From Eimeria praecox (taxonomy: Eukaryota), in assembly GCA_963920595.1 (NCBI GenBank), contig OY986946.1, positions 4,774,001-4,838,000 on the forward strand: DNA of 64,000 nucleotides. The letters are read 5' to 3'. The notes beneath the pieces are model-generated. The model was not told the origin of the DNA. It searched no databases and was given only the letters and a program-made list of their open reading frames with translations. Both the position numbers and the translations under genes were made by a program. Positions 1-64,000 of this stretch are shown in pieces (positions within the stretch are counted from its first letter, which is position 1; the number at the start of each line of letters is the position of its first letter).

Positions 1-9
1 AACAACGAT

Positions 10-3000
10 TTGACTACTGCAACCGAGCCTGCCTCCACGCTAGACTCCTGCATCATGTTGCTCCAGCACACAGGCACAATGTCGCAGATTCAACGCACGG
101 CCTTCTGGAGACAGCCATCACCCAAACATTGGCGCCCCCGAATGCCAGAAACGTTCAATGAAACGCAACATGCCTCCCACCCAGACCTGTCAAACCATAC
201 ACTGCAGCACATTCACACTGTCCTAACACCCTGCCCCATCCACTTGCTTCTTGACGCAGTTCCTCTGCAGTTGGCCTCAGGCTCCACACACACTCGAACA
301 CCGCATCTCACCCTGCACATCACCTCTCCACCCTTCACACAACACACCACCTACTCCAACCTAGCATCTGCTGCGTGCGAAATGCTTCCCCTCCACAACC
401 ATAAAGCAAGTCAGAACACACATTGTCAATATAACATCCAGCATCCGAAGCTCCTCCATCGCCACACCCTACCTCCCCCACATCGCCAATCGCGCAAACA
501 GATGTCTTGCCGCACACACATACCCACGCCGCTAAATGCCATCCAGCCACGCCGACATACCCAACTACCTGCCACTAAACATGCAAAGCGTGCACGACGA
601 TTACGCCTGTCCGACATCCTTATTACCAGCATTCAACGCACTTCCTCCTATACACAACCACCGACTCAACAACTCCTCCGTCCTAAAAACGAGCTGTCCA
701 CTGCAACCGAGCCTGCCTCCACGCTAGACTCCTGCATCATGTTGCTCCAGCACACAGGCACAATGTCGCAGATTCAACGCACGGCCTTCTGGAGACAGCC
801 ATCACCCAAACATTGGCGCCCCCAAATGCCAGAAACTTTGCATGAAACGCAACATGCCTCCCACCCAGACCTGTCAAACCATACACTGCAGCACATTCAC
901 ACTGTCCTAACACCCTGCCCCATCCACTTGCTTCTTGACGCAGTTCCTCTGCAGTTGACCTCAGGCTCCACACACACTCGAACACCGCATCTCATCCTTC
1001 ACATCACCTCTCCACCCTTCACACAACACACCACCTACCCCAGCCTAGCACCCGCTGCGACCGAAACGCTCCCCCTCCACAACCATAAAGCAAGTCAGAA
1101 CACACATTGTCAATATAACATCCAGCATCCGAAGCTCTTCCATCGCCACACCCTACCTCCCCCACATCGCCAATCGCGCAAACAGATGTCTTGCCGCACA
1201 CACATACCCACGCCGCTAAATGCCATCCAGCCACGCAAACATACCCAACTACCTGCCACTAAACATGCAAAGCGTGCACGACGATTACGCCTGTCCGACA
1301 TCCTTATTACCAGCATTCAACGCACTTCCTCCTATACACAACCACCGACTCAACAACTCCTCCGTCCTAAAAACGAGCTGTCCACTGCAACCGAGCCTGC
1401 CTCCACGCTAGACTCCTGCATCATGTTGCTCCAGCACACAGGCACAATGTCGCAGATTCAACGCACGGCCTTCTGGAGACAGCCATCACCCAAACATTGG
1501 CGCCCCCAAATGCCAGAAACTTTGCATGAAACGCAACATGCCTCCCACCCAGACCTGTCAAACCATACACTGCAGCACATTCACACTGTCCTAACACCCT
1601 GCCCCATCCACTTGCTTCTTGACGCAGTTCCTCTGCAGTTGACCTCAGGCTCCACACACACTCGAACACCGCATCTCATCCTTCACATCACCTCTCCACC
1701 CTTCACACAACACACCACCTACCCCAGCCTAGCACCCGCTGCGACCGAAACGCTCCCCCTCCACAACCATAAAGCAAGTCAGAACACACATTGTCAATAT
1801 AACATCCAGCATCCGAAGCTCCTCCATCGCCACACCCTACCTCCCCCACATCGCCAATCGCGCAAACAGATGTCTTGCCGCACACACATACCCACGCCGC
1901 TAAATGCCATCCAGCCACGCAAACATACCCAACTACCTGCCACTAAACATGCAAAGCGTGCACGACGATTACGCCTGTCCGACATCCTTATTACCAGCAT
2001 TCAACGCACTTCCTCCTATACACAACCACCGACTCAACAACTCCTCCGTCCTAAAAACGAGCTGTCCACTGCAACCGAGCCTGCCTCCACGCTAGACTCC
2101 TGCATCATGTTGCTCCAGCACACAGGCACAATGTCGCAGATTCAACGCACGGCCTTCTGGAGACAGCCATCACCCAAATATTGGCGCCCCCAAATGCCAG
2201 AAACTTTGCATGAAACGCAACATGCCTCCCACCCAGACCTGTCAAACCATACACTGCAGCACATTCACACTGTCCTAACACCCTGCCCCATCCACTTGCT
2301 TCTTGACGCAGTTCCTCTGCAGTTGACCTCAGGCTCCACACACACTCGAACACCGCATCTCATCCTTCACATCACCTCTCCACCCTTCACACAACACACC
2401 ACCTACCCCAGCCTAGCACCCGCTGCGACCGAAACGCTCCCCCTCCACAACCATAAAGCAAGTCAGAACACACATTGTCAATATAACATCCAGCATCCGA
2501 AGCTCCTCCATCGCCACACCCTACCTCCCCCACATCGCCAATCGCGCAAACAGATGTCTTGCCGCACACACATACCCACGCCGCTAAATGCCATCCAGCC
2601 ACGCAAACATACCCAACTACCTGCCACTAAACATGCAACGCGTGCACAGCGATTAAGCCTGTCCGCCATCCTTATTACCAGCATTCAACACCCTTCCTCC
2701 TATACACAGCGATCGACTCAACAACTCCTCCGTGCTAAAAACGAGCTGTCCACTGCAACCGACCCTGCCTCCACGCTAGACTCCTGCATCATGTTGCTCC
2801 AGCACACAGGCACAATGTCGCAGATTCAACGCACGGCCTTCTGGAGACAGCCATCACCCAAATATTGGCGCCCCCAAATGCCAGAAACGTTCAATGAAAC
2901 GCAACATGCCTCCCACCCAGACCTGTCAAACCATACACTGCAGCACATTCACACTGTCCTAGCACCCTGCCCCATCCACGTGCTGCTTGACGCAGTTCCT

Positions 3001-5424
3001 CTGCAGTTGACCTCAGGCTCCACACACACTCGAACACCGCATCTCACCCTGCACATCACCTCTCCACCCTTCACACAACACACCACCTACTCCAACCTAG
3101 CATCTGCTGCGTGCGAAATGCTTCCCCTCCACAACCATAAAGCAAGTCAGAACACACATTGTCAATATAACATCCAGCATCCGAAGCTCCTCCATCGCCA
3201 CACCCTATCTCCCCCACATCGCCAATCGCGCAAACAGATGTCTTGCCGCACACACATACCCACGCCGCTAAATGCCATCCAGCCACGCAAACATACCCAA
3301 CTACCTGCCACTAAACATGCAAAGCGTGCACGACGATTACGCCTGTCCGACATCCTTATTACCAGCATTCAACGCACTTCCTCCTATACACAACCACCGA
3401 CTCAACAACTCCTCCGTGCTAAAAACGAGCTGTCCACTGCAACCCAGCCTGCCTCCACGCTAGACTCCTGCATCATGTTGCTCCAGCACACAGGCACAAT
3501 GTCGCAGATTCAACGCACGGCCTTCTGGAGACAGCCATCACCCAAACATTGGCGCCCCCAAATGCCAGAAACGTTCAATGAAACGCAACATGCCTCCCAC
3601 CCAGACCTGTCAAACCATACACTGCAGCACATTCACACTGTCCTAGCACCCTGCTCCATCCACTTGCTTCTTGACGCAGTTCCTCTGCAGTTGACCTCAG
3701 GTTCCACACACACTCGAACACCGCATCTCACCCTGCACATCACCTCTCCACCCTTCACACAACACACCACCTACTCCAACCTAGCATCTGCTGCGTGCGA
3801 AAACCTTCCCCTCCACAACCATAAAGCAAGTCAGAACACACATTGTCAATATAACATCCAGCATCCGAAGCTCCTCCATCGTCACACCCTATCTCCCCCA
3901 CATCGCCAATCGCGCAAACAGATGTCTTGCCGCACACACATACCCACGCCGCTAAATGCCATCCAGCCACGCAAACATACCCAACTACCTGCCACTAAAC
4001 ATGCAAAGCGTGCACGACGATTACGCCTGTCCGACATCCTTATTACCAGCATTCAACGCACTTCCTCCTATACACAACCACCGACTCAACAACTCCTCCG
4101 TCCTAAAAACGAGCTGTCCACTGCAACCGAGCCTGCCTCCACGCTAGACTCCTGCATCATGTTGCTCCAGCACACAGGCACAATGTCGCAGATTCAACGC
4201 ACGGCCTTCTGGAGACAGCCATCACCCAAACATTGGCGCCCCCAAATGCCAGAAACGTTCAATGAAACGCAACATGCCTCCCACCCAGACCTGTCAAACC
4301 ATACACTGCAGCACATTCACACTGTCCTAACACCCTGCCCCATCCACTTGCTTCTTGACACAGTTCCTCTGCAGTTGGCCTCAGGCTCCACACACACTCG
4401 AACACCGCATCTCACCCTGCACATCACCTCTCCACCCTTCACACAACACACCACCTACTCCAACCTAGCATCTGCTGCGTGCGAAATGCTTCCCCTCCAC
4501 AACCATAAAGCAAGTCAGAACACACATTGTCAATATAACATCCAGCATCCGAAGCTCCTCCATCGCCACACCCTACCTCCCCCACATCGCCAATCGCGCA
4601 AACAGATGTCTTGCCGCACACACATACCCACGCCGCTAAATGCCATCCAGCCACGCAAACATACCCAACTACCTGCCACTAAACATGCAAAGCGTGCACG
4701 ACGATTACGCCTGTCCGACATCCTTATTACCAGCATTCAACGCACTTCCTCCTATACACAACCACCGACTCAACAACTCCTCCGTCCTAAAAACGAGCTG
4801 TCCACTGCAACCGAGCCTGCCTCCACGCTAGACTCCTGCATCATGTTGCTCCAGCACACAGGCACAATGTCGCAGATTCAACGCACGGCCTTCTGGAGAC
4901 AGCCATCACCCAAACATTGGCGCCCCCAAATGCCAGAAACGTTCAATGAAACGCAACATGCCTCCCACCCAGACCTGTCAAACCATACACTGCAGCACAT
5001 TCACACTGTCCTAGCACCCTGCTCCATCCACTTGCTTCTTGACGCAGTTCCTCTGCAGTTGACCTCAGGTTCCACACACACTCGAACACTGCATCTCACC
5101 CTGCACATCACCTCTCCACCCTTCACACAACACACCACCTACTCCAACCTAGCATCTGCTCCGTGCGAAAACCTTCCCCTCCACAACCATAAAGCAAGTC
5201 AGAACACACATTGTCAATATAACATCCAGCATCCGAAGCTCCTCCATCGCCACACCCTACCTCCCCCACATCGCCAATCGCGCAAACAGATGTCTTGCCG
5301 CACACACATACCCACGCCGCTAAATGCCATCCAGCCACGCCGACATACCCAACTACCTGCCACTAAACATGCAACGCGTGCAAAGCGATTACGCCTGTCC
5401 GCAATTTTTATTATGAGCATTTAA
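10..5424 (+). other. Repeat-generated ORF (1,804 aa, ~8 x 228-aa units); coding status doubtful
   Basis: Frame open because the 684-bp monomer has no stop in this frame. Starts at TTG and ends at a TAA carried by a variant monomer (gcaatttttattatgagcatttaa). Confidence 0.2.
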
Positions 5425-5481
5425 CGCACTTCCTCCTATACACAACCACCGACTCAACAGCTCCTCCGTCATAACAACGAT

Positions 5482-8400
5482 TTGACTACTGCAACCGACC
5501 CTGCCTCCACGCTAGACTCCTGCATCATGTTGCTCCAGCACACAGGCACAATGTCGCAGATTCAACGCACGGCCTTCTGGAGACAGCCATCACCCAAATA
5601 TTGGCGCCCCCAAATGCCAGAAACGTTCAATGAAACGCAACATGCCTCCCACCCAGACCTGTCAAACCATACACTGCAGCACATTCACACTGTCCTAGCA
5701 CCCTGCCCCATCCACGTGCTGCTTGACGCAGTTCCTCTGCAGTTGACCTCAGGCTCCACACACACTCGAACACCGCATCTCACCCTGCACATCACCTCTC
5801 CACCCTTCACACAACACACCACCTACTCCAACCTAGCATCTGCTGCGACCGAAACGCTCCCCCTCCACAACCATAAAGCAAGTCAGAACACACATTGTCA
5901 ATATAAAATCCAGCATCCGAAGCTCCTCCATCGCCACACCCTATCTCCCCCACATCGCCAATCGCGCAAACAGATGTCTTGCCGCACACACATACCCACG
6001 CCGCTAAATGCCATCCAGCCACGCAAACATACCCAACTACCTGCCACTAAGCATGCAAAGCGTGCACGACGATTACGCCTGTCCGACATCCTTATTACCA
6101 GCATTCAACGCACTTCCTCCTATACACAACCACCGACTCAACAACTCCTCCGTGCTAAAAACGAGCTGTCCACTGCAACCCAGCCTGCCTCCACGCTAGA
6201 CTCCTGCATCATGTTGCTCCAGCACACAGGCACAATGTCGCAGATTCAACGCACGGCCTTCTGGAGACAGCCATCACCCAAACATTGGCGCCCCCAAATG
6301 CCAGAAACTTTGCATGAAACGCAACATGCCTCCCACCCAGACCTGTCAAACCATACACTGCAGCACATTCACACTGTCCTAGCACCCTGCTCCATCCACT
6401 TGCTTCTTGACGCAGTTCCTCTGCAGTTGACCTCAGGTTCCACACACACTCGAACACCGCATCTCACCCTGCACATCACCTCTCCACCCTTCACACAACA
6501 CACCACCTACTCCAACCTAGCATCTGCTGCGTGCGAAAACCTTCCCCTCCACAACCATAAAGCAAGTCAGAACACACATTGTCAATATAACATCCAGCAT
6601 CCGAAGCTCCTCCATCGCCACACCCTATCTCCCCCACATCGCCAATCGCGCAAACAGATGTCTTGCCGCACACACATACCCACGCCGCTAAATGCCATCC
6701 AGCCACGCAAACATACCCAACTACCTGCCACTAAACATGCAAAGCGTGCACGACGATTACGCCTGTCCGACATCCTTATTACCAGCATTCAACGCACTTC
6801 CTCCTATACACAACCACCGACTCAACAACTCCTCCGTCCTAAAAACGAGCTGTCCACTGCAACCGAGCCTGCCTCCACGCTAGACTCCTGCATCATGTTG
6901 CTCCAGCACACAGGCACAATGTCGCAGATTCAACGCACGGCCTTCTGGAGACAGCCATCACCCAAACATTGGCGCCCCCAAATGCCAGAAACTTTGCATG
7001 AAACGCAACATGCCTCCCACCCAGACCTGTCAAACCATACACTGCAGCACATTCACACTGTCCTAACACCCTGCCCCATCCACTTGCTTCTTGACACAGT
7101 TCCTCTGCAGTTGGCCTCAGGCTCCACACACACTCGAACACCGCATCTCACCCTGCACATCACCTCTCCACCCTTCACACAACACACCACCTACTCCAAC
7201 CTAGCATCTGCTGCGTGCGAAATGCTTCCCCTCCACAACCATAAAGCAAGTCAGAACACACATTGTCAATATAACATCCAGCATCCGAAGCTCCTCCATC
7301 GCCACACCCTATCTCCCCCACATCGCCAATCGCGCAAACAGATGTCTTGCCGCACACACATACCCACGCCGCTAAATGCCATCCAGCCACGCAAACATAC
7401 CCAACTACCTGCCACTAAACATGCAAAGCGTGCACGACGATTACGCCTGTCCGACATCCTTATTACCAGCATTCAACGCACTTCCTCCTATACACAACCA
7501 CCGACTCAACAACTCCTCCGTCCTAAAAACGAGCTGTCCACTGCAACCGAGCCTGCCTCCACGCTAGACTCCTGCATCATGTTGCTCCAGCACACAGGCA
7601 CAATGTCGCAGATTCAACGCACGGCCTTCTGGAGACAGCCATCACCCAAATATTGGCGCCCCCAAATGCCAGAAACGTTCAATGAAACGCAACATGCCTC
7701 CCACCCAGACCTGTCAAACCATACACTGCAGCACATTCACACTGTCCTAGCACCCTGCCCCATCCACGTGCTGCTTGACGCAGTTCCTCTGCAGTTGACC
7801 TCAGGCTCCACACACACTCGAACACCGCATCTCACCCTGCACATCACCTCTCCACCCTTCACACAACACACCACCTACTCCAACCTAGCATCTGCTGCGA
7901 CCGAAACGCTCCCCCTCCACAACCATAAAGCAAGTCAGAACACACATTGTCAATATAAAATCCAGCATCCGAAGCTCCTCCATCGCCACACCCTATCTCC
8001 CCCACATCGCCAATCGCGCAAACAGATGTCTTGCCGCACACACATACCCACGCCGCTAAATGCCATCCAGCCACGCAAACATACCCAACTACCTGCCACT
8101 AAGCATGCAAAGCGTGCACGACGATTACGCCTGTCCGACATCCTTATTACCAGCATTCAACGCACTTCCTCCTATACACAACCACCGACTCAACAACTCC
8201 TCCGTGCTAAAAACGAGCTGTCCACTGCAACCCAGCCTGCCTCCACGCTAGACTCCTGCATCATGTTGCTCCAGCACACAGGCACAATGTCGCAGATTCA
8301 ACGCACGGCCTTCTGGAGACAGCCATCACCCAAACATTGGCGCCCCCAAATGCCAGAAACTTTGCATGAAACGCAACATGCCTCCCACCCAGACCTGTCA

Positions 8401-11400
8401 AACCATACACTGCAGCACATTCACACTGTCCTAGCACCCTGCTCCATCCACTTGCTTCTTGACGCAGTTCCTCTGCAGTTGACCTCAGGTTCCACACACA
8501 CTCGAACACCGCATCTCACCCTGCACATCACCTCTCCACCCTTCACACAACACACCACCTACTCCAACCTAGCATCTGCTGCGTGCGAAAACCTTCCCCT
8601 CCACAACCATAAAGCAAGTCAGAACACACATTGTCAATATAACATCCAGCATCCGAAGCTCCTCCATCGTCACACCCTATCTCCCCCACATCGCCAATCG
8701 CGCAAACAGATGTCTTGCCGCACACACATACCCACGCCGCTAAATGCCATCCAGCCACGCAAACATACCCAACTACCTGCCACTAAACATGCAAAGCGTG
8801 CACGACGATTACGCCTGTCCGACATCCTTATTACCAGCATTCAACGCACTTCCTCCTATACACAACCACCGACTCAACAACTCCTCCGTGCTAAAAACGA
8901 GCTGTCCACTGCAACCGAGCCTGCCTCCACGCTAGACTCCTGCATCATGTTGCTCCAGCACACAGGCACAATGTCGCAGATTCAACGCACGGCCTTCTGG
9001 AGACAGCCATCACCCAAACATTGGCGCCCCCAAATGCCAGAAACTTTGCATGAAACGCAACATGCCTCCCACCCAGACCTGTCAAACCATACACTGCAGC
9101 ACATTCACACTGTCCTAACACCCTGCCCCATCCACTTGCTTCTTGACACAGTTCCTCTGCAGTTGGCCTCAGGCTCCACACACACTCGAACACCGCATCT
9201 CACCCTGCACATCACCTCTCCACCCTTCACACAACACACCACCTACTCCAACCTAGCATCTGCTGCGTGCGAAAACCTTCCCCTCCACAACCATAAAGCA
9301 AGTCAGAACACACATTGTCAATATAACATCCAGCATCCGAAGCTCCTCCATCGTCACACCCTATCTCCCCCACATCGCCAATCGCGCAAACAGATGTCTT
9401 GCCGCACACACATACCCACGCCGCTAAATGCCATCCAGCCACGCCGACATACCCAACTACCTGCCACTAAACATGCAAAGCGTGCACGACGATTACGCCT
9501 GTCCGACATCCTTATTACCAGCATTCAACGCACTTCCTCCTATACACAACCACCGACTCAACAACTCCTCCGTGCTAAAAACGAGCTGTCCACTGCAACC
9601 GAGCCTGCCTCCACGCTAGACTCCTGCATCATGTTGCTCCAGCACACAGGCACAATGTCGCAGATTCAACGCACGGCCTTCTGGAGACAGCCATCACCCA
9701 AACATTGGCGCCCCCAAATGCCAGAAACGTTCAATGAAACGCAACATGCCTCCCACCCAGACCTGTCAAACCATACACTGCAGCACATTCACACTGTCCT
9801 AACACCCTGCCCCATCCACTTGCTTCTTGACGCAGTTCCTCTGCAGTTGACCTCAGGCTCCACACACACTCGAACACCGCATCTCATCCTTCACATCACC
9901 TCTCCACCCTTCACACAACACACCACCTACCCCAGCCTAGCACCCGCTGCGACCGAAACGCTCCCCCTCCACAACCATAAAGCAAGTCAGAACACACATT
10001 GTCAATATAACATCCAGCATCCGAAGCTCCTCCATCGCCACACCCTACCTCCCCCACATCGCCAATCGCGCAAACAGATGTCTTGCCGCACACACATACC
10101 CACGCCGCTAAATGCCATCCAGCCACGCAAACATACCCAACTACCTGCCACTAAACATGCAACGCGTGCACAGCGATTAAGCCTGTCCGCCATCCTTATT
10201 ACCAGCATTCAACACCCTTCCTCCTATACACAGCGATCGACTCAACAACTCCTCCGTGCTAAAAACGAGCTGTCCACTGCAACCGACCCTGCCTCCACGC
10301 TAGACTCCTGCATCATGTTGCTCCAGCACACAGGCACAATGTCGCAGATTCAACGCACGGCCTTCTGGAGACAGCCATCACCCAAACATTGGCGCCCCCA
10401 AATGCCAGAAACTTTGCATGAAACGCAACATGCCTCCCACCCAGACCTGTCAAACCATACACTGCAGCACATTCACACTGTCCTAGCACCCTGCTCCATC
10501 CACTTGCTTCTTGACGCAGTTCCTCTGCAGTTGACCTCAGGCTCCACACACACTCGAACACCGCATCTCACCCTGCACATCACCTCTCCACCCTTCACAC
10601 AACACACCACCTACTCCAACCTAGCATCTGCTGCGTGCGAAAACCTTCCCCTCCACAACCATAAAGCAAGTCAGAACACACATTGTCAATATAACATCCA
10701 GCATCCGAAGCTCCTCCATCGTCACACCCTATCTCCCCCACATCGCCAATCGCGCAAACAGATGTCTTGCCGCACACACATACCCACGCCGCTAAATGCC
10801 ATCCAGCCACGCCGACATACCCAACTACCTGCCACTAAACATGCAAAGCGTGCACGACGATTACGCCTGTCCGACATCCTTATTACCAGCATTCAACGCA
10901 CTTCCTCCTATACACAACCACCGACTCAACAACTCCTCCGTGCTAAAAACGAGCTGTCCACTGCAACCGAGCCTGCCTCCACGCTAGACTCCTGCATCAT
11001 GTTGCTCCAGCACACAGGCACAATGTCGCAGATTCAACGCACGGCCTTCTGGAGACAGCCATCACCCAAACATTGGCGCCCCCAAATGCCAGAAACGTTC
11101 AATGAAACGCAACATGCCTCCCACCCAGACCTGTCAAACCATACACTGCAGCACATTCACACTGTCCTAACACCCTGCCCCATCCACTTGCTTCTTGACG
11201 CAGTTCCTCTGCAGTTGACCTCAGGCTCCACACACACTCGAACACCGCATCTCATCCTTCACATCACCTCTCCACCCTTCACACAACACACCACCTACCC
11301 CAGCCTAGCACCCGCTGCGACCGAAACGCTCCCCCTCCACAACCATAAAGCAAGTCAGAACACACATTGTCAATATAACATCCAGCATCCGAAGCTCCTC

Positions 11401-46679: not shown

Positions 46680-47877
46680 GATGATCATGACGCACCTCGC
46701 AACACTACATTTATGCAGCCTAGCAAATCGTTCATATATCGCAACACTATAAGCAATGCCCTTAAGGCTGTCGTTTTTGTGCGTGTTTACGTTGGACCTC
46801 ATCACAGTACAGTCAAACGTTACCCAACACCTATCTAACGTACCGTCTGGCAGCAAGGCCACATACAGGCCGTGGTTGCTGTAACCTCAAGCCAAGCAAG
46901 TGAGCAATTGCTTGGACCTCAAACAACCGTTAAGCCAGCACTGAAGGCTGAACTTAGCACGCTTTGAAAGGATAGCAAATCTGAAAGGCAACGGAGACAT
47001 TGGCGTGAGTCTCAACCTACTTTCTTTGGGTAGTTTAACACCACCTTTTCAGGCCAGCAAGGCATTAATACACTGTCACCGAGACGTCTACTGAATGCTC
47101 TTCTCAGCAATAGCCGGCGAATGCTATCCCAATGAAATTACTAAATGGAGCAAGGCCAAGTCGGTGGAAATCAGCAAGACCCTGAAAACTGGGAAACGCA
47201 CAAGCAGCTCATGCCCATAACATTTTAACAGCGCGCTTCCAGATAATCTGTGCGCTGACTGACTGCCGCCGTCATACAGTCATCATCACCTGATCTCGAC
47301 GCGTGACCCCATTGAGGGACTGCAGTATTTGTCAAGATTTCGAAAACAGGCCTTAGGTACGGCGCACGCCGCACACTTGGGATGTCGATACTACCCGCTA
47401 CTACGACAACGTCCGTGATCGAAACTTGTGCTCAGGGGCTGGTCGGTGAGACAAATAGTTCCTTCTCCCCTGCTGAAGGCACGAACGGTATCCCCCCTGC
47501 CTTCACTTGCCAGTGACGCGCTTACTAGGAGATGCAGTCAGTTGCATCTCAGCTGAAATTCCCGCACGAACGCCACCGACGAGGACCATGATCATCTGAC
47601 GGTGCCTCTTCAAGCGATTCAGAGGGAAAACCCAAGCTAGAAAACATAAGACTCCGATGTCCCAACGTTCGACTGACATCCGTATATGATCTTGTCTCCT
47701 GGAAAAGAAGCGAACTACCAACTATGTATTTGCGTTTAGTGGTTCCTAAGGTCGTTGTGCCGTGTTCGTTAGGGAAGAGCCCCAGTCTTTACGCGCTGCA
47801 CCTGCGAAGCAAGTGATTCCTAAACTTGTTTTCATTTATTTTTTAATGCATCTAATCCTGTGGCCATCTGACCCGTC

Positions 47878-49950: not shown

Positions 49951-49999
49951 TAAGCAGCCACTTTAGTACAGCCCATTGTGCCAAGGAGCACCACATTCT

Positions 50000-52800: not shown

Positions 52801-52939
52801 AATAGTAGATACGCTCCCACGATATCCACCAAAAAGAACAAAGCGTACAGCTAAATGGCTGGATTCGCATTGACCAGCACTAACTACAACGCAGTTCTGA
52901 GCCCGTTGCATGAACACATCTAAGCTTCACACCTAAGAA

Positions 52940-54663
52940 TCATAAAGACGTTTTGAGAATCCACAGGGAAGCAGGCACAAGCACATTCAGGCGTATTCGG
53001 GACTCAGCATTATTGCCACACATATACGCTAATGCCAGGTGTGCCAGCCAACGCACCCAAGCTGCAGCCAGCCATGCACTCTGTGGATTTGACCAAGCGC
53101 TTAGAGTTTCGGGTAGGCTGAATAAGCGACTTTCACATGCCAGCGCTTCAGTGTATATGTGTCGGAATGCCAGCATCCATGTACCGTCCGGTTAACACCC
53201 ACGCCTGTGTCTCTGCCTGAGGCAAGGCTGAGTGTGCTTTTAACCGCTTCGCACATTCTGAATTGCTCGAAAGTCGAACGACCTGAACGGCTTCATCCTT
53301 CCTGGCACGTCTACCATGTACATTGGAAGCTTTTAGGCTCAGAGGCAGTGAAGCGTTGCGTGCCATGGAATTGGTGGGATACACTTGGCGCTTTGCCGAG
53401 TGTTGGCGAATGGAAGTGCTGGCGGAACGACAGGCTGCCAAGCCCCGATAAATGACCGCCCACTGGTCCACCAGTGCGGCACAACGAAAAGCTTACCTTC
53501 CTGACGCTCTGCCCTGAACGATTCGAGACAGCGCGTCATTGATTGGCACTGAACCGTTCAGGAAAGCAAGCGAACTCACGAGAAAATGATTGGTATTGTA
53601 GAGGCTGGTTTCCTGCGGCAAGTTGGGATCAAACCAAGGCTGCCCTAGCCGATGAAAAGTATCTACTGCAATCGTCAAGTGCACATCAGCGGCGCACACA
53701 TCGTCCGAACCAGCCTCTACTTCAGTGTTTGGATGAAGCATAAAGCTATTTACTTTCACCGTCACACGAGCATGTTCCTCACGGTATACAGGGTACCGGC
53801 AATTTTACGTGGTGCACGGGCAGAGGAAGGCCAGTGTGTTTAACGAAGCATGCAAAGGCTGGCCTGGGCCTGACGCATTACTGCAAGCATTGTCCTGTGA
53901 CTCACTCTCTATACAGGGGGGCAATCACTCAAAATGGCGAAAAAGCGCTAGTTAATGGGGGATAGAGCTTTATTCGAACCTGGTGAGCGTGCAATTCACT
54001 CATCTTTTGGTTCAGGCAAAACAACCACAGGCCATGCATGGGCACAATCCCATCAGCAGGCTCTTGAGCAGCCTTTATTGAAAGGTATTCATTGCATCAT
54101 CGATTTCCAATACCTTGTGAACCTGGGTTTCGGGGTGAACCTATCCAACCTCAACCATTTGCCACGCTTCCTGAGTTTGGGGAAGCAATCGCATGTGCAA
54201 CCGGTAATCACTTCCCATACACATACATATTGATGTGCTTCTCCCCTCGGCGCTGCTAGGCTCGCTTTTGAGTACGCGCGCATTCGCACGTTCATCTGAA
54301 CAGTCATTCCTGTGCTGTTCATAGTTGCCTCGTCAAGCTCGTAGAACAGTCCATCGCTTTGCAATCACCCGTAAGCCTCCTACGTTAACACCCCTCTGTC
54401 GCATTGTTACGCACGAGCACGGTAAAGCGCGGAGCAAACAGCCTACCTAGCATTCCTGACGGCAACCCCCACAGACGGGTACTCCACAGTCGAGACAAAA
54501 AATGTGAGTTAATCGTGCTTCCAGCGTCTTGTACTTGTCCTTGCTTAGCCAGCATGCCGTGAAAATGCACAACAAAATGTGGAAGGCAAATGAAAGATAT
54601 GTGCAGCTTTAACCGTACTGCACACGCTCCGAGCACTCCAGAAAACGAAAACGGCCCCAACAA
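52940..54663 (-). mobile_element. Inverted fossil gypsy pol (RT - RNase H - integrase N-terminus)
   Basis: Minus-strand order. RT: GLF..TVQMNV..AY....L..EVI..FPKLRK (ORF 54,089-54,364). RNase H end: DALSR at 53,523-53,537. Integrase W.H.S.DF region: RWLAHLALAY (ORF 52,940-53,176). Confidence 0.6.
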
Positions 54664-54934
54664 AGCGGCATCCGGCTCAGTTTGAATGCCAGCTCACTTC
54701 CTTCAGGTTCGGTGATGCTGCGAATGTTACTGACCTTCAATGAAGTGCTACATAGCACTGCTGCATTTGGTTATGCCGCCAACGCATGTATTGCTCTTGC
54801 TTACCAGGCGAGAAGCCGCGGCAGTGTCGCGGCCCCTGAACACTGTTGCTCATAACTATTGCTAAGAGCAATCGGCAGCATCGGCCCATGAGCTTGAAGT
54901 CGAAGGAATGCGGCATCATGCTATCATAGGAGCA

Positions 54935-54935
<1 letters not shown>

Positions 54936-54979
<44 letters not shown>

Positions 54980-54982
54980 ACG
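54936..54982. repeat. (AC)n microsatellite with degenerate GCACAC tail
   Basis: ~17 AC units (54,936-54,969) followed by gcacacgcacacg. Confidence 0.97.
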
Positions 54983-55550
54983 TATAATCTGCTTTTTCAT
55001 ACATGCACTATAGGGAAGTTTCCAGAGTGTTTGCTGGCCCGATCAAGAGGACAGCACTAGCGATATCTTTCAGTTGGCTCCACAGGAAAAGTGCAGCCAG
55101 AGCAATATGCTGGCCGAATGCAGTTCCTCTAGTTGCGTCTAGCACCAACGCACAGGCTGATCTACACCGAATCCAAACAGCTTCAAATCTTCTGCGCCCG
55201 TCCTAAAGAGGTGAGCCTTGCCACAGGCTTTTTAACAATAGTGCGCCATTTGCATAGCAGTGGGACGCCTCGGAATGTGGCAAGCGCTACGTATTCGTTC
55301 GCGTACACTTCCTGACGTGGATTTTCATTGGGGCCATTCAACAGACAGCAGGAAAAAGCACTGGCCACTCGGCATGCAGGAAATCGTTGACACCTTTGAC
55401 ACCATAATGAGTGCTAATTGCTTGTCCTCGCAGTCGAAGCCATGCAGTGAGCCAAGCGCATTAGGATTGGGTATATAAAGGGCGCATTTCATTCAGCCGT
55501 CCAGCCTCTCATAGACTGACTGGGTTTGCAGCTAACGCATCTGCTCTTTC

Positions 55551-56224
55551 GTGGTCCTTCTTGCACCATCAGATACAATACACAGGGCTTCCGAAACGTC
55601 GCCGTATTCAGGGTACATATCAGAATCAGCTTCCGACGCTAAATTCAAAACTTGCTTCCACAAATGCCTTGGCTGTTCAACGCTTCACCGGCAGGTCGTA
55701 AAAGAGTGTAGCGAAACCCATCCGTTGGGCCAGAACATGCCGTGCTTCATTCGCAAATGTGCAAGATGCTCAGAAGAGACGCTGCGTTCCCACCTGTCTT
55801 CTGTCTTCTTTGCTATCCGAGTTTCACCTGTCAACAAAATCGCACCACTTGTTTTCACCAGTCAGACGTTGTTCACGGTAACGGAACCGGGCAGCTAGCG
55901 ATCTCCCTAGAACGAAATCAAATGGTGCATTCTGCGTACTGCGCAAATTATGCTTCCCCTGGAACCTGTCTCACCTTCGGAATCAAGTGCAAACAGATAA
56001 TGGAGACGGAGAACCTGCCTCCAAGTGAACGATCAACGGCCTGCCTATTACATGGACGAAGTGAGACGCCACAGTGCAAGGGCTACGCACGAGGAAACGC
56101 CACTTGCGCTAGAAAGGAGCTTCGGCGCATATCCTACACGAATCACGCATCGTCCGCGTTCACCTGCTTCAATGGAGCAATCTGTCCGTACATGACCTAT
56201 TCCTTCTCGTCAAGCAACGCATAA
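55551..56224 (+). mobile_element. Possible fossil integrase N-terminal fragment
   Basis: FIRKCARC (CxxC of an HHCC finger), followed in another frame by QMVH (cf. KMAH). Weak. Confidence 0.3.
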
Positions 56225-58741
56225 CTGGATTTTCTGAGGTCCTACGGTTCTAACGGCATGAAGCTAGCGATGCACAGCACAAACGTGTACACGGCGTTTA
56301 AAAGAAGGCACGCACAGTCTGGTGGGCCAAAGGTCTTGCCACGCTCATATATGCATGAACTTAGGCTTGTAATCTTTTCCTGCCAAACTTATGCTTCATG
56401 TGGAGGCTTAGCCTCAGTTAATATTTATCGCCTATCACAGTTCGATGATCACTGGAGGTTCCTCCAGACGCCTGATACGCTGCTGCCCACGTATGTGCGT
56501 TATGCAGAGCAACCCGATGACACGGAAAAACCGAGTTGTTGTTCCCAACGGGCGCCTCGTTGGATAGGCATGGAGCTGCACCGAGGTTAGGAGCCGCAAG
56601 ACCCACATTCCTGGCGCACTTAACCGGCATAACCCAAGAATCTGCGCGTCGTCATCTCTTTCGGGTTACCTAATGTGAATGCAGGCCAAAGTGCCTCTAC
56701 CGCTCAGTTACCTACATTGTTTGCACTGACACAATTAATACGGGGGCGCCATGATGGTGGCTTTGCTTGACTTGCTGCTCCGTCAAGCGTAGCCCCATTT
56801 ATCCCCACTACGCCCAAAAGGACATGCGAGAAGGCGGCCTTAGACCCCTTGCAGTGGGCGTTACCCTACATCCTGAAATATCGGTGTTTCACAAGAGATA
56901 TCAAGGAGGCCCCTTTGTGCTGTTCGTGCTGTTGCTGTTGGTGGTGCTGCTGAATAATCTTTGATGCCATCAGATTTACGCTTGCGACTCAGTTACATGC
57001 TCAATACACACTAGCGCATCAGCAAACCTGAGCACCCTGGAGCAACATGTTTCAATGCACAGTTTACTCAGTTCTATGTTTCCTCCTACCGTTGGTGTCA
57101 GGAACATCTTAGTCGCATACAGAAGTTCTGTAACGGATGGTACAATGCGCAGGGCTCGCCAGAACTAACAACCCACTTTAACAGAATATTCATCCGGAAG
57201 AAACGCGGTTGGAATGCAGAATGAACTGATATGTAGAATCCAGTCCTATGCATGGCATTTTACTAAAGCAGACGATAGCAGACAATGCCATTAGTCAGCC
57301 GAGCAGGTGTCGAAAGCCGGTTGCTGGCCCATTAACCGCTTTAAGCAAAGACGCACGCAGGTTGCATCAAGTAAAACAACACTTTCTAGGCCAAAGCTAA
57401 ATATTAGTGTAACTGTAGTGTATCCGCACCACCAGATATTCTACACGCCATGAACCAGCAGCATAACCTGCACAGAAACGCAGTCATGCTCCTCATGCAT
57501 GAGGCTGACGCCAACGAACGACGACGAATGACCATCAACTAAAGTTCGTAAATGCAGTTGATTGGTGAGATAATGCCTTCTCATTTGGCAGGCCCGCCTA
57601 GCTCATCCCAGCGACTGATCTCCCGATTCTAGGTATTTCCATTCAGCTTTCGACCAGGGGCCTTTAGAAGCATTGCCTTCGTAAGCTCCGATGCACCGCA
57701 TCTCACCAAGGTCCACGAGCGCGGCTATATACGTCAGTGCATTGTCAATAAGATTTTCAGGCCGCTGTGCTCACACCTTGCACAAACGTAGTGTTGCTTC
57801 ACTTATGGCTAAAGTATGCAGTCTGAGACGGTAAAAAATTGTCCGCCCTGAACTGCAGTGGATCAGGATTAATCTAGTTATCGTGCAAACGTGGAACTGC
57901 TTCTTGCTGTCCCACCTCCTACCACAAGCGTAAGATTAAACTAATAGGGGGCGTGGCATAGTGGCAGAAACAACATTTTCTGTCACTGACAACTTGAGTC
58001 GTTTAACGTAACGTCACGCATCGTCAACCAGTCACTGCCAGCGACTCAGCTTCACTATCCTAAGCAATATTCAAATTTTCACACCACAACAGTATTTGAC
58101 GTGCCCACGAAATTGCTTTATTGCAACTCTAAGGTTTATTCGCACTGAAAGCACGTAGGTGTAGTTCATAATATGTGCTCCAAGCGCATTACTTCAGAAG
58201 CCTCACGTAGTTGCATTTGCCCCCAAGGAACCAGTGGCAGTAAGCTACTTTTCAAGAGGTGAGCAGTGCTGCTCGTCATTGCTAGAACGGATGCAATACA
58301 GAAGCCAGTGCTCGTGCGCGCTAACTGTTGAGGTCGTCAATCAGATCAACTGGGCAACCAGCGTAGCTGGAGGACTTACATGAATGCGTTTCAGCATACA
58401 GATGACAATAATCGGTCAGAACTGTATTTTTAGGTTCTCATAGAGGAAAGGTGAAGAGCACAAACTGACCGCCTGACAATTCGCCCGCACGTCTCTTGAT
58501 TTCCAGCGTTCCAACATGCTACCGCATCTGTAAGATGGCAATGGAAACACGAGGTGCACCATTTCGTGCACTATACATGCAGTAAAGAACGTCTGCTGTC
58601 CAAGACGCAGGTCTACATTACCACTGAGCACAGGCAGTAGCAGAGGACTTTAAGGCAACCACGGCAACTATCGGAATCTTAGACGTGGCAACTTAAGCAG
58701 CGCAATTCGTGCTATGGCATTGGCCGCAGCAAGCCTGAAAC

Positions 58742-59083
58742 ATGGATCGCTCCACCAAATCATCAGTGGCGGCCCCTATGGACTGTATATTTCTAATAAG
58801 AGCAGTGAATGTAATCTGCAGGTTCGCGTACTGCCTAAGCAGAAACCCCCCTCCACGTTGGATTGGATCTGGCGGTGTAGTCCGATTGAAGCACATACAC
58901 AATTGGTGTAGCCAGCTGGTCTACCTCAGGATGCAACGGATGGTCCTCACCAGGCCTATGCGCCAGCCGGCTATACTTCCGCCGTCAGGCGCACAGAATG
59001 TGTTGCCCAGCACAGCACCAGTTGTACCTTATTTGCTGGTGCAAGAAAGTGTACCCACACTAGCAAGTGTAGATAGTGTTTAA
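58742..59083 (+). mobile_element. Fossil integrase core fragment
   Basis: DRSTK.....P (cf. VDRFTK....P), then I.S....RL and W..QL at roughly integrase spacing. Confidence 0.45.
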
Positions 59084-60110
59084 AAGGTGAGTCATAATGG
59101 GATGCAAAAGCCGTGGAAGCTCCTCCAAACAGAAACGTAGTTTGATGTGGTTGCACTCAGAAAAGGGGCGCTGAGGTCTTGTGAGCGTCTTAGAGCTGCA
59201 GATGCACGCGTACAGACGCTTATGCACACCAACTAACTTGGAGAATGTTTCACGTCTATGGCATTCAGCGCGTTCGTAGAAAAGGCGCCGCCTGATAAGG
59301 ATCCAGCAACTTTATGATGGTGCAGTTTTTCCTGGATAGCAAATGTGTCTCCTTTTGACATCATCATGTTGAATTCTCGACTCAATCAACGCCTCCTGTC
59401 TTTAACGTAGGAATATTGAAAGCATCGCAGCAGCATAAAACTTCCTAAGCAGCAGACAGGCAAAGCGCGAAACTAGCGGGTAATCAAAGCCCGAGATGCG
59501 CGTGAATGCAAGGCACCAGTGTGCTTGCACTACCATGCTTAATCTGGAAGAGTTAGCAGTTGCAACAGGCTTTGCCGAGGGCAGAGGTAAGATATCGACT
59601 GCTTTACGGCACCTGCAAATAACTAATACTTCAGAAAAACCATTTGCCTTTGTCTACGACACATATGCTGCCCACTTCCCGTATTGCTTGGCATAAGACA
59701 TCGTCAGGCGACGTAAATGCCGCTTCGCTTCACGCGCCTTTCAACTGTCTGTGCCATGCACAATGCACCAGTCAAAAATGCTTAGCACGCCATCTGTGCA
59801 CTAGGAGCCCTTCTCCTTGTGCACATCAGCAAAACACTTTATAGCTCCATCGGAATAAGCTGCAAGCCAATGCCAGGTGCAGAACCGTGGTCAGTGCCTC
59901 AAGACCTACACGTGCCTATGTTTAACTCTCAAAACCTAAGGCCAGTCACCATCACTCATCCGAGGAAGGCCTCACATCACTCTGAGCTTTCCGGAGCATG
60001 TGGAAGTGTGCATGAGCCTGCAATATTCTCACAACAAGCTCTGGTGGAAGCAAAAACCATTTTAATTCCAGGCAATGATTAATGCAGATTTCAGGCTGCC
60101 TGAAAGTTAA

Positions 60111-60347
60111 ATGCATGATGCTCCTTGTGTTTCTCATGCAGCCAGTATGGTCCTACGTTCTGTCGTGTGCAGATGCCCCCCGAGCTCCAGCCATGTTCCC
60201 ATATTTGTAGTTTGGATACAGCTTCTGAAAGTAAACAATTTGTTGCAGGAGTTCCAAGATCCATATAGAAATGAAACACACAATCTGGCGTGGATTAGAT
60301 GGATTCCACTCCAAGCTGCTTTACTGACTTCCAGCCTAGGAAGTTGA
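60111..60347 (+). mobile_element. Possible fossil integrase C-terminal fragment
   Basis: CPPSSSHVPIFVV resembles LP....HPVFHVS. Weak. Confidence 0.3.
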
Positions 60348-62120
60348 AGGTAGGAAGAAGGCCTGTAAAATTGATGAGGACATTGTTTGCAGGCAAGCTG
60401 CCCGCACATTCAACTGCGAAATACACCAACAAAAGCATGAAGTGGGAATTTCCGGGTCTTGATGCATTCTAGGAGTCAAATGCTTGCATGCGGGCGCCTA
60501 AAGACGCCGAGTACAACAGCGTGGCGCAAGGAGAGGCCAGCAACGGGCCTTTGAGTGTGTTGACATACACAGCATAATGCTTTGCCAGACGCCGTCTTGT
60601 CGGCTGGAGCCATGGAAGTTGGTATGTTCCGCATCAGCAGGAGATGCCGGCGTGCCATGGCCTCTGGAATGGATTCTAAGCAGCGTTGAGGTATATCGGC
60701 TCACATAACAGCATCAATTGAATGTGAGCGGACGTACTACATCATAGGTTAACAGTCCCAATTATGCCAGCTTGCAGAAACCCATGTTTTGTGCTAGAGC
60801 AATCTGCAGCCGTCGCGAATTGTATGCTCGGAATATTATCGGCGGCACGAAATACTGTTCGACCCATTATACTCGATATGAAATGAAGCACAGCTCCGCT
60901 TCTACGAGTTACATGCGCGCGATTTAGGCTTTACCAAAACGGTGCACTATACACCTCAAAAACGGTAGCTGCTGAATAAGGAGCTTAAGCGGCACGTACT
61001 ACAGTGAAGGCATGCCCTCAAACCCTCTGTTTGAAGGGTTCGAGTTACTGCTATTGCCATCACGAGAGGGAGATGCGGTGCTGCTTCAGAACCAGCAGTC
61101 CATACTAATGGGAGTTTCACAAGACGAGCCCGGTGAGCCCCATCTCAAAGCAATGCCGCAAAAAAATTCAATAGTCTCCAAGGCACTAAAAAGTTCAGCA
61201 TTGCTGTCTTTGTGCTGATTCAGTATGAAAGAAACGTGAGACTCTGGCGCAACTATCATTCATTTTCACAGCGCCTCGACCTCAGTAGTCTGGATCATGC
61301 AGCAAGTGCACGCAACAGCATCAAGTGAAACGTTCAGACACCTGACTGTTGCCATGCGCGTAGCGACCTATTACTCATGTTCCGCTGCATAACGTCTGCA
61401 GTCTACACACTTGCTAAAGAAGGTTAAAGTCGGTCAGATGCGGCTTGCTGTCTGCAAAATCAGTAAGGTGTAGGCTCTTTCTTAAGCTCCTCAAGGACCC
61501 ACATATAAGGCTCACAAATTTCACTTCTCTGCGAATAATTGCCTGAGTGCAGGTCTTGCGCAACTCTGAGGGTACTCCTGCGTTGCGTCCGAACAATTAA
61601 TTTCACAGGCCGCTAATTCGACATAAGAAAGGATCGGCGGATCGATACATTTGAGCTAGCGTAAAATGAGCAAAACCGAAGAATCCGCACTTACGCCCCA
61701 TAAGCATTTGCATGCATATAATTAAAAAGATACCCTGGTCGTAGTGTGCGTTTGAAGCAGATTCTGGCTCCCCCTCAGGCAGCTTTTGAAAAGGATAGCA
61801 GGATACAGCAGTGGCCCATGAACTATCCGGCCATTTCAAGCAAGCAAAAAGTTTACAGGAGAACGGCGATGGGCAGTGGGAATGCAAGCCAGTTCACTTG
61901 GAATCAATGAAGCCTGTGACCCCAAGCAGACCATAGTAGGGGACCAAGCTGCACGCATAACACACAAAGGCATCACATGCACAACCTACCGAAGCCGCAA
62001 GCTGCGAAGAGTATTTACTGCCTCACCTCCTGCACACATGTTCAGAGTCTGCATGCAGACTGACTCGACCCTAATGAGCGAGACAACACCAAAGCCAATC
62101 TTGCACCTAATCTAGTTCAC

Positions 62121-63651
62121 ATGCGCGAAAAGCATGTCATCGAATCTTACTCTCGCGCCATGCCGTTAGCAATGCCACCCTTTGAGCGACAGCCCTTGCC
62201 TCCGAAGCCAGAAAACGTGCACACTAGCCACGCCTTTCTGCTTCTTAAATGCCTTCATGATATCCCATGCATCTGGCCGTCAGTGCTGACTGATACGCAT
62301 GGAGGCACGTTAACAAGCATACAATTCAAGCTCTCCCGCTTGAAAAATATCTGGCTGGAAGATACCTCAAGAATCTGTGCCACATACGATCCTAGATAAA
62401 ACTCGGTGCCTACACCAAAGGCTCAAATGCATCTGTCTACTACGTCCGTCTTGCACACTCCCTCACTACACCAGACGAATCAGAAACTGTACGCGAACCA
62501 TTTAAACCGTGCTGCCTCGTCTAGTTCTAGCAGGCATGACTCGTGAGACTTGGCGCATGTGGCTTGCGTTGCGAGGCTAATGAGCATTACATTTTCAGCA
62601 CTAGGAAGCACCTCGGTCTACGGCGCTACACAAACAACTAAAAAGGTCAAACTCCTGTGCGAACACCTAGCTGCCCTCCACCCTAAACCTACGTCAGCAG
62701 TGTACCCCATTAAGCAAATCGTGGCACCGCGACATCACAAAGTATAGGCAAGCGTCTCGTTAAGAAGTGACGCACGTCCTACAGCACCACCAGGAGCGTC
62801 ATAAGCTACACCAGATGTCCCATCCCAGTTACATCCAACCGACAAACTGCTAGTATCCAGGAGCACAGAAAGCGCTGCTGCTTCAGCTTGGGTCTGCTGA
62901 AGACAGCGGTTCCTTTTGCATGTCAGGTGCGGCGAAAAAACGATATGCTTAATCGTACAAGGTGCTTCTTTACGCTCCAGGCCCCGCCATGCGAACAGAC
63001 GCATCTCCCACGCACAGGTGAGTCCAAGCAAATCCATATCAAGGCATTTCACACATAGCTTGCCCCGCGGCAATTGCAGAGCATTCTAATTCATTTTGCA
63101 CAGCATGGCTGGTTTTATAGAGTGACCCTGTTGGCAATTTCTCCTTGTTGGTGTATGCACACTAATAGTTATGTACAAAATCGACGCAGCGCACCAACTG
63201 GAAGGAGCGGCAAACCGTCTACATCTGTACAAATAAGACACTAGCAGGGTGCAGACGGTTTACTTTTCCAAGCGGGCTAACCATTCGTAAGGGCCCTCCT
63301 CAATCACAAACGCCCCACCTAGCAGCGTAGGGCATTCGCGGACAACGGAGTCCAGCGGTAAGTCACAGACAGCCCTGATGTTGTTGGCAGCAGCTATGCC
63401 AAGCTTTCGTAGCAAGCCTTCACGCTGTAAGGCCTGTCAATATCTTGCTCCTTTGCAATAAGCAAAAGATACCACAAACGCTGTCCCAACGCAACAGCTC
63501 TGCAGTTGACTGGCTGTTCCAGCCTCTGCTGTTCCAGCAGAGACTCAGAGTGCCAACTCCGTCTCTCATGGGGCGATCCTCAGTTACACTCACAAGAGCC
63601 GCGCTGCTTCTCAAAGAAGGATTGTTTTGCGTGCAAGGAAAGCGCAGCTAA
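62121..63651 (+). mobile_element. Fossil gypsy RT (N-terminus through connection), probably continuing past the window end
   Basis: RT N-terminus: LPPK....H and RL...W....SRICA (ORF 62,121). FSALG resembles FS.LD (ORF 62,550). Connection: AV..L.Q.L.....LRVP (ORF 63,445). Confidence 0.55.
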
Positions 63652-64000
63652 TGAAGCGGCAATTTCTGTTAAACTGCTGAGTGCCAGAAAGGGCCAAATT
63701 GTCCCAACAAACAACGCGGAGTTCGACCTGCATCAGCATCACACCCATCAGCCCCTTGCATTTCAACATGTGCCCGATACGCCTCTATTTGCGCCAGTCC
63801 AAATGCACACCCCTTGATAATCTTCCATCACAGGCATTCACCGAAGCCCTGGATGTGAGACACGCACTTGCTAAAAAACAGTGCAACGGCGGGAATGTTC
63901 CAGTTGCAAGTGTTCGTTATCTTTGCAGTTCACGATCAACTCCATCCAAGCACACGCTCCTTTTACCGTAGTACGTGGTTCTCACGGATGTTCAAGTAAA

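Follow-up and report, generated by a model that had tools for sequence, protein, structure and literature searches.

The closest described counterparts of the locus analysed here are satellites of Toxoplasma, which have been reported at subtelomeres and near the centromere of chromosome IV (PMC9498087). Heterochromatin marks have been reported for the T. gondii sat350/Sat680 and TgTAS blocks (PMC4008256, PMC9498087), while the 529-bp repeat (sat529), present in 85-205 copies at one locus on chromosome IV (PMC8092015), has been termed centromeric (PMC9498087). According to the available accounts, coccidian satellites are mainly subtelomeric (PMC9498087) and mapped coccidian centromeres are gene-free intervals (PMC8515493). 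The Hi-C centromeres of Eimeria tenella are gene-free, span 15-74 kb and in one case lie beside a repeat (PMC8515493), and the subtelomeres of this species are gene-poor and of low uniqueness (PMC9131526). Both share gene-free or gene-poor stretches with our locus; unlike it, they are not described as satellite arrays.

Our analysis covered a window of 64,000 bp, the features of which are listed in Table 1. It contains 55 full monomers, arranged head to tail on the same strand with a period of 684 at 16-37,624 (684 bp in 46 monomers, 685 bp in eight and 665 bp in one). Core monomers 1-38 have no indels and a mean pairwise divergence of 2.8%, and their + strand is C/A-rich (C 40%, A 28%; GC skew about -0.49). 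Edge monomers 39-55 carry 1-bp insertions, one 19-bp deletion and stops inside the open frame. Divergence climbs with position along the array (Spearman 0.67, p=2e-8), amounting to 7.1% in monomers 45-55, and in-register homology reaches about 38,600 (z=9; forward score 12.1 against a null maximum of -2.6) through a 77% relic across which the strand skew weakens. The 133-bp insert within this oldest copy showed no relation to the monomer, its score being equalled by 106 of 300 nulls. Thus, the homogeneous core and degenerate edge claimed in the preliminary description are both borne out. In addition, 12 identical pairs were found among distant monomers, and none of the 55 monomers is interrupted by an insertion. 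A local two-monomer alternation was detected in monomers 23-32 (lag-1 minus lag-2 divergence 2.7 points, permutation p=0.0014, for a stretch picked after inspection); the same test over all monomers 1-38 gave p=0.015. The array is satellite DNA: its copies are tandem and non-coding, with a homogenised interior and a diverged edge.

Table 1. Features of the analysed window (positions within the 64,000 bp).
Feature	Positions	Strand	Remarks
Giant ORFs of 1,807, 5,699 and 1,209 aa	1..26154	+	Single stop-free monomer frame; judged non-coding
Homogeneous core, monomers 1-38, all 684 bp	16..26007	+	Array continues leftward out of the window
Ancient ~141-bp tandem duplication inside monomer	4734..5015	+	Monomers 7/8: 4,734-4,874 vs 4,875-5,015
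Local two-monomer higher-order alternation, monomers 23-32	15064..21903	+	
Diverging edge, monomers 39-55	26008..37624	+	90-98% vs reference monomer
Truncated monomer	37625..37821	+	Monomer positions 1-197, 92%
133-bp insert within oldest copy	37822..37954	.	Relation to monomer not detectable
Oldest monomer relic	37955..38600	+	77% over 37,955-38,274, then about 57%, in register
Macro-repeat unit 1	38590..42742	+	~3.9-4.1 kb, non-coding
Macro-repeat unit 2	42741..46681	+	Recent tandem copy of 38,802-42,742, 99.3%, period 3,939
Macro-repeat unit 3	46682..50131	+	Old; left boundary inferred
Macro-repeat unit 4	50132..54200	+	First 2.1 kb 97% to unit 1, rest old; right boundary approximate
Unique DNA	54200..64000	.	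Without detectable gene

As in T. gondii sat350/Sat680 (TgTARE1) with TgTAS, a long monomer (about 350 or 680 bp in that species) adjoins gene-poor duplicated DNA. Sat680 is a dimer of 350-bp units, whereas the 684-bp monomer lacks a 342-bp dimer structure and no telomere is seen here; the two are likened by description and not by sequence. Four 12-mers looked for were absent from seven supplement files of PMC4008256, although these files may contain no repeat sequences. The sat529 repeat is likewise comparable by description rather than by sequence, being a homogeneous long-monomer array with a different monomer length. Plant satellite centromeres with CRM-clade chromoviruses also combine a homogeneous core, a diverged edge and local higher-order repeats; unlike them, our locus has no detected chromovirus pol, insertion-free monomers, a flank without inverted copies and a monomer several times longer than is typical. 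In the literature searched, which comprised few subscription journals and left the supplements of the centromere atlas outside its scope, no description of a 684-bp protist satellite was found. The repeat block as it stands is undescribed there, yet ordinary in kind.

Within the monomer, the internal duplication scored 6.4 against a maximum of 4.5 among 150 nulls (z 15-17 in a second test). A Sat680-like 342-bp dimer and a five-subunit monomer were both rejected, as this duplication was the only internal homology of the kind, and an array of 5S, tRNA or snRNA genes was rejected because the monomer has no Rfam or tRNA match. G4/i-motif potential, folding and 10-bp periodicity of the monomer did not exceed what its composition predicts, and a 10-bp WW period was absent from the top five periods.

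It is extremely improbable that the array codes for a giant repetitive protein. A single frame remains free of stops in 36 of the 38 core monomers, for which the chance is 0.003 under base shuffling; it becomes 0.095, however, under an order-2 Markov model that preserves trinucleotide composition. Furthermore, variants in the open frame are spread evenly over codon positions (28/22/21), 16 of 71 are synonymous against 27% expected, and the edge monomers gather stops and frameshifts. No homologues of the monomer ORF were found among 132 candidates. An atlas search for homologues (best value 0.81, recognition 720) and PDB searches (best E values 0.049 and 0.41) were likewise empty. The 5,699-aa ORF is judged to be a neutral by-product of one stop-free frame, and serves as a caution that a satellite can yield an ORF of this length neutrally.

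To the right of the satellite, 38.6-54 kb consists of four non-coding units of about 3.4-4 kb, arrayed on the same strand and of very unequal ages (99%, 97%, 69% and about 50%). Unit 3 is anchored at 48,137 (to 40,007) and at 49,513-49,955 (to 41,703-42,146; 69%), while the old part of unit 4 is anchored at 52,448, 53,262 and 53,916 (to 40,903, 41,814 and 42,109, respectively); unit 4 also carries an insert of about 350 bp near 53,283-53,630. Every flank repeat is direct and on the same strand, and inverted copies are absent. Contig depth indicates a low copy number for the units (about 2-5), and they do not form a dispersed family at identities of at least 80-85%. No additional unit was found in 54,200-64,000, which includes (AC)23 at 54,936-54,981 and a drop in GC to 47-49% at 57-62 kb.

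In agreement with the earlier claim that no intact gene is present, none was detected, though a spliced lineage-specific gene may still exist. Flank ORFs of at least 100 aa number 24, compared with 26.4±5.2 under a Markov null. No Pfam match reached the curated cut-off, either for 18 whole frames or for the roughly 200 flank ORFs submitted singly (out of 347 with at least 38 aa); there was no tRNA across the whole window, and Rfam matched nothing at 35-64 kb or 3.4-5.5 kb. Homologues of the ORF at 49,617-50,246 were absent among 116 candidates, and phmmer of 38,214-39,299, with stops read as X, returned no match in 1.84 billion proteins.

The preliminary description had also interpreted about 25 kb of the flank as retroelement fossils and the satellite as retroelement-derived, and neither interpretation was upheld. 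The search for pol employed Pfam, phmmer, tblastn, a profile built on 86 pol proteins of the gypsy/chromovirus type and a decay model that allows for frameshifts. Artificially decayed pol controls could still be detected with up to about 50-60% of their bases replaced. Against reversed or Markov controls, no signal stood out for RT, RNase H, integrase or chromodomain, nor was homology to RT, RNase H and integrase found in the order of gypsy elements. The chromodomain profile, which has low sensitivity because the domain is so short, had no match, and a restricted test at 40.1-40.7 kb scored 15.9 against a null maximum of 21.6. Gag and protease gave no significant match by Pfam and tblastn, the two methods applied to them outside the decay model, and no PBS or PPT was seen by eye. 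LINE, copia and gag-only classes were covered at Pfam sensitivity, with gag also covered by tblastn. RT, RNase H and chromodomain motifs had been read by eye in the monomer and in 38.2-40.5 kb, but this reading was rejected after the pol profile and decay tests. The monomer itself is not detectably related to the flank or to pol: comparisons with 38.6-42.75 kb, 49.3-50.13 kb and the pol profile were at null level, and the profile of the macro-repeat unit gave no match.

The flank units, the monomer or both could nevertheless descend from a Ty3/gypsy element (chromovirus) decayed past detection, or from a gag-only, copia or LINE class, and Eimeria chromoviruses are indeed reported to be highly fragmented and diverged (PMC4199364). 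The best tblastn match aligned RT/RNase H with 49,791-50,243 (E=0.17), a 65-bp piece of the 69% block matches contigs of another organism at depth, and two of 24 restricted tests beat all 40 nulls, with scores near zero; these two, however, lie on opposite strands of a single stretch and point to different domains. The 69% direct repeats may be read as old LTRs flanking an interior of about 3.3 kb, but homology runs on outside them and between units is not restricted to termini. In the forward decay model, nothing was clear of controls among 17 slices of the flank, taken on both strands, or on the two strands of the satellite (best real score +0.1, best control -0.3), while controls decayed by 50-60% replacement and 1% indels scored 7-72. 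A joint three-copy pol test was also null, although both of its positive controls were detected. We thus regard such an origin as distinctly unlikely.

We favour, with a probability of about 0.6, the reading that the window holds the right end of a large 684-bp array and an older four-unit array of about 4-kb units, which together likely form a block of silent heterochromatin, sited either at the end of a chromosome or at one internal locus, and not the centromere itself. Unequal exchange and gene conversion among same-strand copies would homogenise interior monomers and make short local dimers, whereas border monomers, partnerless on one side, would decay neutrally; the divergence gradient and the identical distant pairs support this explanation. 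Tandem duplication and conversion on a longer unit, at several dates, may have built the flank, and the monomer itself grew at least partly via its old internal duplication. The direct, same-strand, uninverted repeats support host recombination over transposon insertion, in line with a centromere atlas that associates same-strand nesting with the former and copies on both strands with the latter (10.64898/2026.09.17.752431). The low-copy flank units, the neutral open-frame variation and the random flank ORF statistics all support the silent block, as would, for a coccidian host, the gene-free nature of mapped centromeres and the mainly subtelomeric location of satellites in that group. Silent chromatin and chromosomal position are here inferred by analogy: the block is likely a heterochromatic satellite like Toxoplasma sat350/sat529, and a probably heterochromatic boundary between satellite and gene desert is a fair reading.

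Depth ratios in three runs place the monomers genome-wide at a few hundred, roughly 190-750, a rough figure since summed contig depth does not equal copy number. This is in the size range of the single-locus 529-bp array of Toxoplasma, and hence supports the silent block. It should be mentioned that a few hundred copies would also fit arrays of about 15-35 kb on each of about 15 chromosomes, centromere-sized for Eimeria (15-74 kb, PMC8515493), which counts against it. A paralogous single-copy edge exists elsewhere (34 differences in 276 bases) and also favours the silent block; in several runs, loose ends suggest that a diverged subfamily of the monomer occurs at other sites. Base composition is compatible with a coccidian host. 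Three unrelated runs showed the satellite alone at low depth, as expected of trace DNA, which makes it useful as a high-copy marker, whereas one run contained the flank alone; exact-pattern scans found none in metagenomes or prokaryote genomes. No RNA run was listed as containing the sequence, which does not bear on its expression. Concerning a chromosome-end site, the absence of a telomeric tract from the window and from the loose ends listed counts against it; CCCTAAA near-matches in the monomer are weakly raised (5 against 1.5±1.3, in one of three patterns tried). Short motifs gave no proof of a coccidian host: the count of TGCATGCA was 4 against 2.0±1.3 expected, and CAG and TTTAGGG showed no excess.

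A centromere within or beside the block carries a smaller but appreciable probability. In the one Hi-C run, which lacks the organism, 1,938 million letters yielded no read from the window. Any tandem array that evolves in concert is expected to have a uniform interior and an edge that decays, and the layering therefore does not single out a centromere. The gene-free flank, at 38.6-64 kb and past the end of the window, might contain the centromere, with the satellite being pericentromeric, as on chromosome 1 of E. tenella and chromosome IV of T. gondii; this we consider unlikely. At least 25 kb lack a detectable gene, GC falls, and at 56-62 kb the stop-like trinucleotide index rises to about 1.0 from 0.65-0.8 in a within-window comparison, a shift in the direction that has been described for silent regions of Toxoplasma, centromeres among them (PMC4008256). 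However, this bias equally marks subtelomeres and any gene-poor region. Similarly, the Hi-C centromere of E. tenella chromosome 1 is "adjacent to a repeat", but such a neighbour is noted for only one of 15 centromeres (PMC8515493). Very unlikely, in our opinion, is that the satellite itself bears CenH3 as a satellite-type regional centromere in a protist. In its layering from core to edge and its local higher-order dimers it is similar to centromeric satellites, its copies could be distributed over all chromosomes, and the diverged subfamily suggested by the loose ends would fit. On the other hand, the layering is generic, the 10-bp WW period is not prominent, and the centromere atlas classes all three of its protists and all four of its algae as "cryptic" and puts candidate centromeric satellites at 140 bp on average, against 684 bp here (10.64898/2026.09.17.752431).

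There is a very small chance that a coccidian host carries this 684-bp, strand-skewed, dimer-bearing satellite with CenH3 on every chromosome, amplified tandemly with no detectable retroelement seed. If so, the satellite type of centromere would occur in a lineage in which those mapped are non-repetitive. Should either the array or the gene-free flank prove centromeric in a coccidian, it would show that Apicomplexa have switched between the non-repetitive and the satellite type of centromere, and would offer a direct CenH3/Hi-C test of how satellite centromeres originate.

Autocorrelation revealed a period of 684 across the first 38 kb of the window, an array overlooked by TRF because the period limit of that program was 500. 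With one monomer as BLAST query, 55 full copies were found, followed by a 197-bp partial copy and a 133-bp insert, which separates the partial copy from a relic, the oldest decayed monomer. Core monomers 1-38 are each 684 bp long and differ by 2.8% on average; the difference is 7.1% in edge monomers 45-55, and divergence increases along the array (Spearman 0.67, p=2e-8). In-register monomer homology reaches about 38,600 (z=9), past which forward scoring remained at null level. The + strand of the satellite is C/A-rich (GC skew about -0.49), a skew that weakens across the relic. The tiling, the divergence gradient and the in-register relic therefore confirm the homogeneous core and degenerate edge proposed in the preliminary description.

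Features of the window, in window coordinates
Feature	Position	Counterpart	Observation
55 full monomers	16-37,624		BLAST
Relic	37,955-38,274	monomer	77% (BLAST)
Relic, continued	38,275-38,450	monomer	forward score 12.1, null maximum -2.6
Relic, end	38,450-38,600	monomer	forward score -2.3, null maximum -4.1
Stop-free ORFs	1-26,154		1,807, 5,699 and 1,209 aa
Loose ends	37,190; 37,292; 37,473; 37,608; 38,007		contigs of several runs go on as diverged sequence
Old edge	38,307-38,582	single-copy paralogue	34 differences in 276 bases
Tandem duplication	38,802-42,742		99.3% (BLAST)
Unit repeat	50,132-52,226	38,590-40,673	97% (BLAST)
Unit repeat	49,513-49,925	41,703-42,116	69% (BLAST)
Anchor	40,007	48,137	colinear, same strand
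Anchor	40,903	52,448	colinear, same strand
Anchor	41,814	53,262	colinear, same strand
Anchor	42,109	53,916	colinear, same strand
Anchor	49,635	53,282	colinear, same strand
Best-conserved unit part	42,070-42,134		around TGCATGCA octamer
Single contig of run X4	38,590-42,628 and ~49,260-50,131		4,907 bases, no skips, depth 3.5
Weak old direct repeat	54,300-54,645	59,300-59,640	offset about 4,993; score 7.7, null maximum 3.7
Unit-motif look-alike, 27 bases	58,764-58,790	48,111; 51,533	not significant (local test)
(AC)23 microsatellite	54,936-54,981

Within the satellite, 12 identical non-adjacent monomer pairs were found, and short blocks repeat at lags 2-26. Monomers 23-32 show the clearest two-monomer alternation (p=0.0014, the stretch having been chosen after inspection), which gives p=0.015 over all monomers 1-38. 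The monomer itself contains an old tandem duplication of ~141 bp, while a 342-bp dimer or five-subunit structure sought inside it was absent. Its stop-free frame, which gives rise to very long ORFs, arises in 0.3% of base shuffles and in 9.5% of order-2 Markov simulations. The 71 core variants are evenly distributed across codon positions, 16 of them being synonymous (expected 27%), and a search for homologues of the ORFs, including Pfam, found none. We treat these ORFs as neutral, and a coding role for the array appears highly improbable. Gene finders may nevertheless annotate them as a giant protein, the variation of which is neutral.

To the right of the satellite, the flank shows a period of 3,939 at 38.5-47 kb (autocorrelation). 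Sensitive DNA comparison added colinear anchors, with scores of 2.8-20 where the null reached -0.8 at most, and the duplications and anchors together therefore define four head-to-tail units of 3.4-4 kb at 38.6-54.2 kb; none was found past this point. Unit 4 carries a recent conversion patch and an insert of ~350 bp. Old unit boundaries are only inferred, because identity between anchors (40-53%) is close to that of unrelated DNA. Contig depth indicates a low unit copy number of about 2-5, and no codon pattern was detected in the conserved unit block (mismatch phases 22/29/19). In sequencing run X5, high-depth contigs of another organism match the best-conserved part over 65 bases, possibly a conserved element common to a relative. 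The motif look-alike lies about two unit lengths further on.

The preliminary description also reported ~25 kb of retroelement fossils in the flank, a supposed chromovirus graveyard, which could not be recovered. At cut-off, Pfam returned nothing when 38-64 kb was submitted as six X-read frames, nor in about 200 of the 347 flank ORFs sent singly, and phmmer gave 0 matches for the best-looking flank stretch. The gypsy references included two IMG/VR 'viral' contigs, L005 (171-4,451) and L006 (2,313-6,161), which resemble intact Ty3/gypsy retrotransposons and have a chromodomain-like C-terminus, a judgement made by eye and helped by the Pfam labels that L005 homologues carry. The best tblastn E values were 0.17 and 0.27, and pol profiles, built from the query and 85 query-covering homologues of the 120 obtained, reached an i-E of 1.2 at best (hmmsearch). 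With a model of neutral codon decay that allows frameshifts, real and control sequence alike scored 16-23 (Viterbi); forward values were -1.6 to +0.1 in 17 slices on both strands versus -1.7 to -0.3 in controls. Positive controls made by decaying a distant gypsy reached 40-72 when 50% was replaced and 7-37 when 60% was, with 1% indels; their signal faded once replacement was 70%, or once indels were 3% at 60%. For an RT of caulimovirus type, more distant still, detection was lost at 60%. Joint tests of three unit copies and of the monomer with the relic were null, and both positive controls passed. The proposal that chromovirus fossils seeded a satellite centromere is unsupported.

The flank thus holds no detectable chromovirus graveyard. 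It may hold remains beyond the detection limit, gag-only pieces or non-gypsy elements, and a retroelement origin too old to be detected seems quite unlikely. In its favour, gypsy motifs were visible in the first by-eye reading, the match at E=0.17 paired RT/RNase H with 49,791-50,243, and 2 of 24 restricted tests exceeded 40 nulls, with negative scores; these two, however, concern opposite strands and different domains. Eimeria chromoviruses are themselves described as fragmented and diverged (PMC4199364).

No intact gene was detected, as had been stated: flank ORF counts agree with the Markov null, a tRNA search of the window and an Rfam search of 35-64 kb and 3.4-5.5 kb gave no match, and the Pfam searches above gave none at cut-off. 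GC is about 50%, and dinucleotide observed/expected ratios are 1.39 (GC), 1.31 (CA), 1.27 (TG) and 0.76 (TA), a composition in line with Eimeria-like coccidia but with certain green algae too; no enrichment of coccidian marker motifs was seen. At 56,000-62,000 GC drops to 47-49%, with more TAA/TAG/ATT-type triplets, and CpG observed/expected falls to 0.73-0.76 at 58-62 kb.

Concerning copies elsewhere, 4 of the 10 runs listed contain more than half of the words from 36-44 kb. Monomer to single-copy contig depth ratios were about 240-540 (X1), 210-750 (X2) and 190-740 (X3); summed contig depth is not copy number, and they are read only as a few hundred copies, roughly several times the 55 in the window. 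In three low-share runs the satellite stands at a depth of about 10-100, and two of these contain essentially nothing else, a pattern as trace DNA would give. Run X4 shows the reverse, flank without satellite; its contig could stem from a unit transcript, a satellite-less strain, a filter hole or a path that the assembler took through the repeats. The paralogue match ends at 38,582, where the macro-repeat begins, likely a rearrangement junction. Behind 37,608 the loose end keeps the monomer register, with about 16 of 26 bases shared by eye, and diverged loose ends are present even in a trace-level run. Taken with the paralogue, these ends suggest one or more additional edges, and another monomer subfamily, elsewhere.

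The satellite shows tandem amplification, a homogenised interior, a decaying edge and an internal duplication, and in the flank a longer unit was tandemly duplicated more than once. Going by what is established for satellites, gene conversion and unequal exchange would drive these changes, and the block would be silent. By analogy, we favor a subtelomeric or single-locus heterochromatic block over all rivals (probability roughly 0.6). E. tenella subtelomeres are described as gene-poor (PMC9131526), and those of Toxoplasma as carrying sat350/Sat680 and sat240; Toxoplasma also has a 529-bp array on chr IV (PMC4008256, PMC9498087, PMC8092015). Centromeres in E. tenella Hi-C data are reported as intergenic and 15-74 kb long, one next to a repeat (PMC8515493). 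In T. gondii and P. falciparum they are described as islands of heterochromatin that are poor in genes (PMC13739221), and an atlas of 325 genomes classed each of its 3 protists as 'cryptic' (10.64898/2026.09.17.752431). A centromere within the flank is rather unlikely, and a satellite bearing CenH3 decidedly so. The locus would work like coccidian satellite blocks such as those of Toxoplasma, but judged by dimer structure its monomer would not belong to Sat350/Sat680. The boundary between satellite and macro-repeat is real, of a known kind and apparently undescribed.
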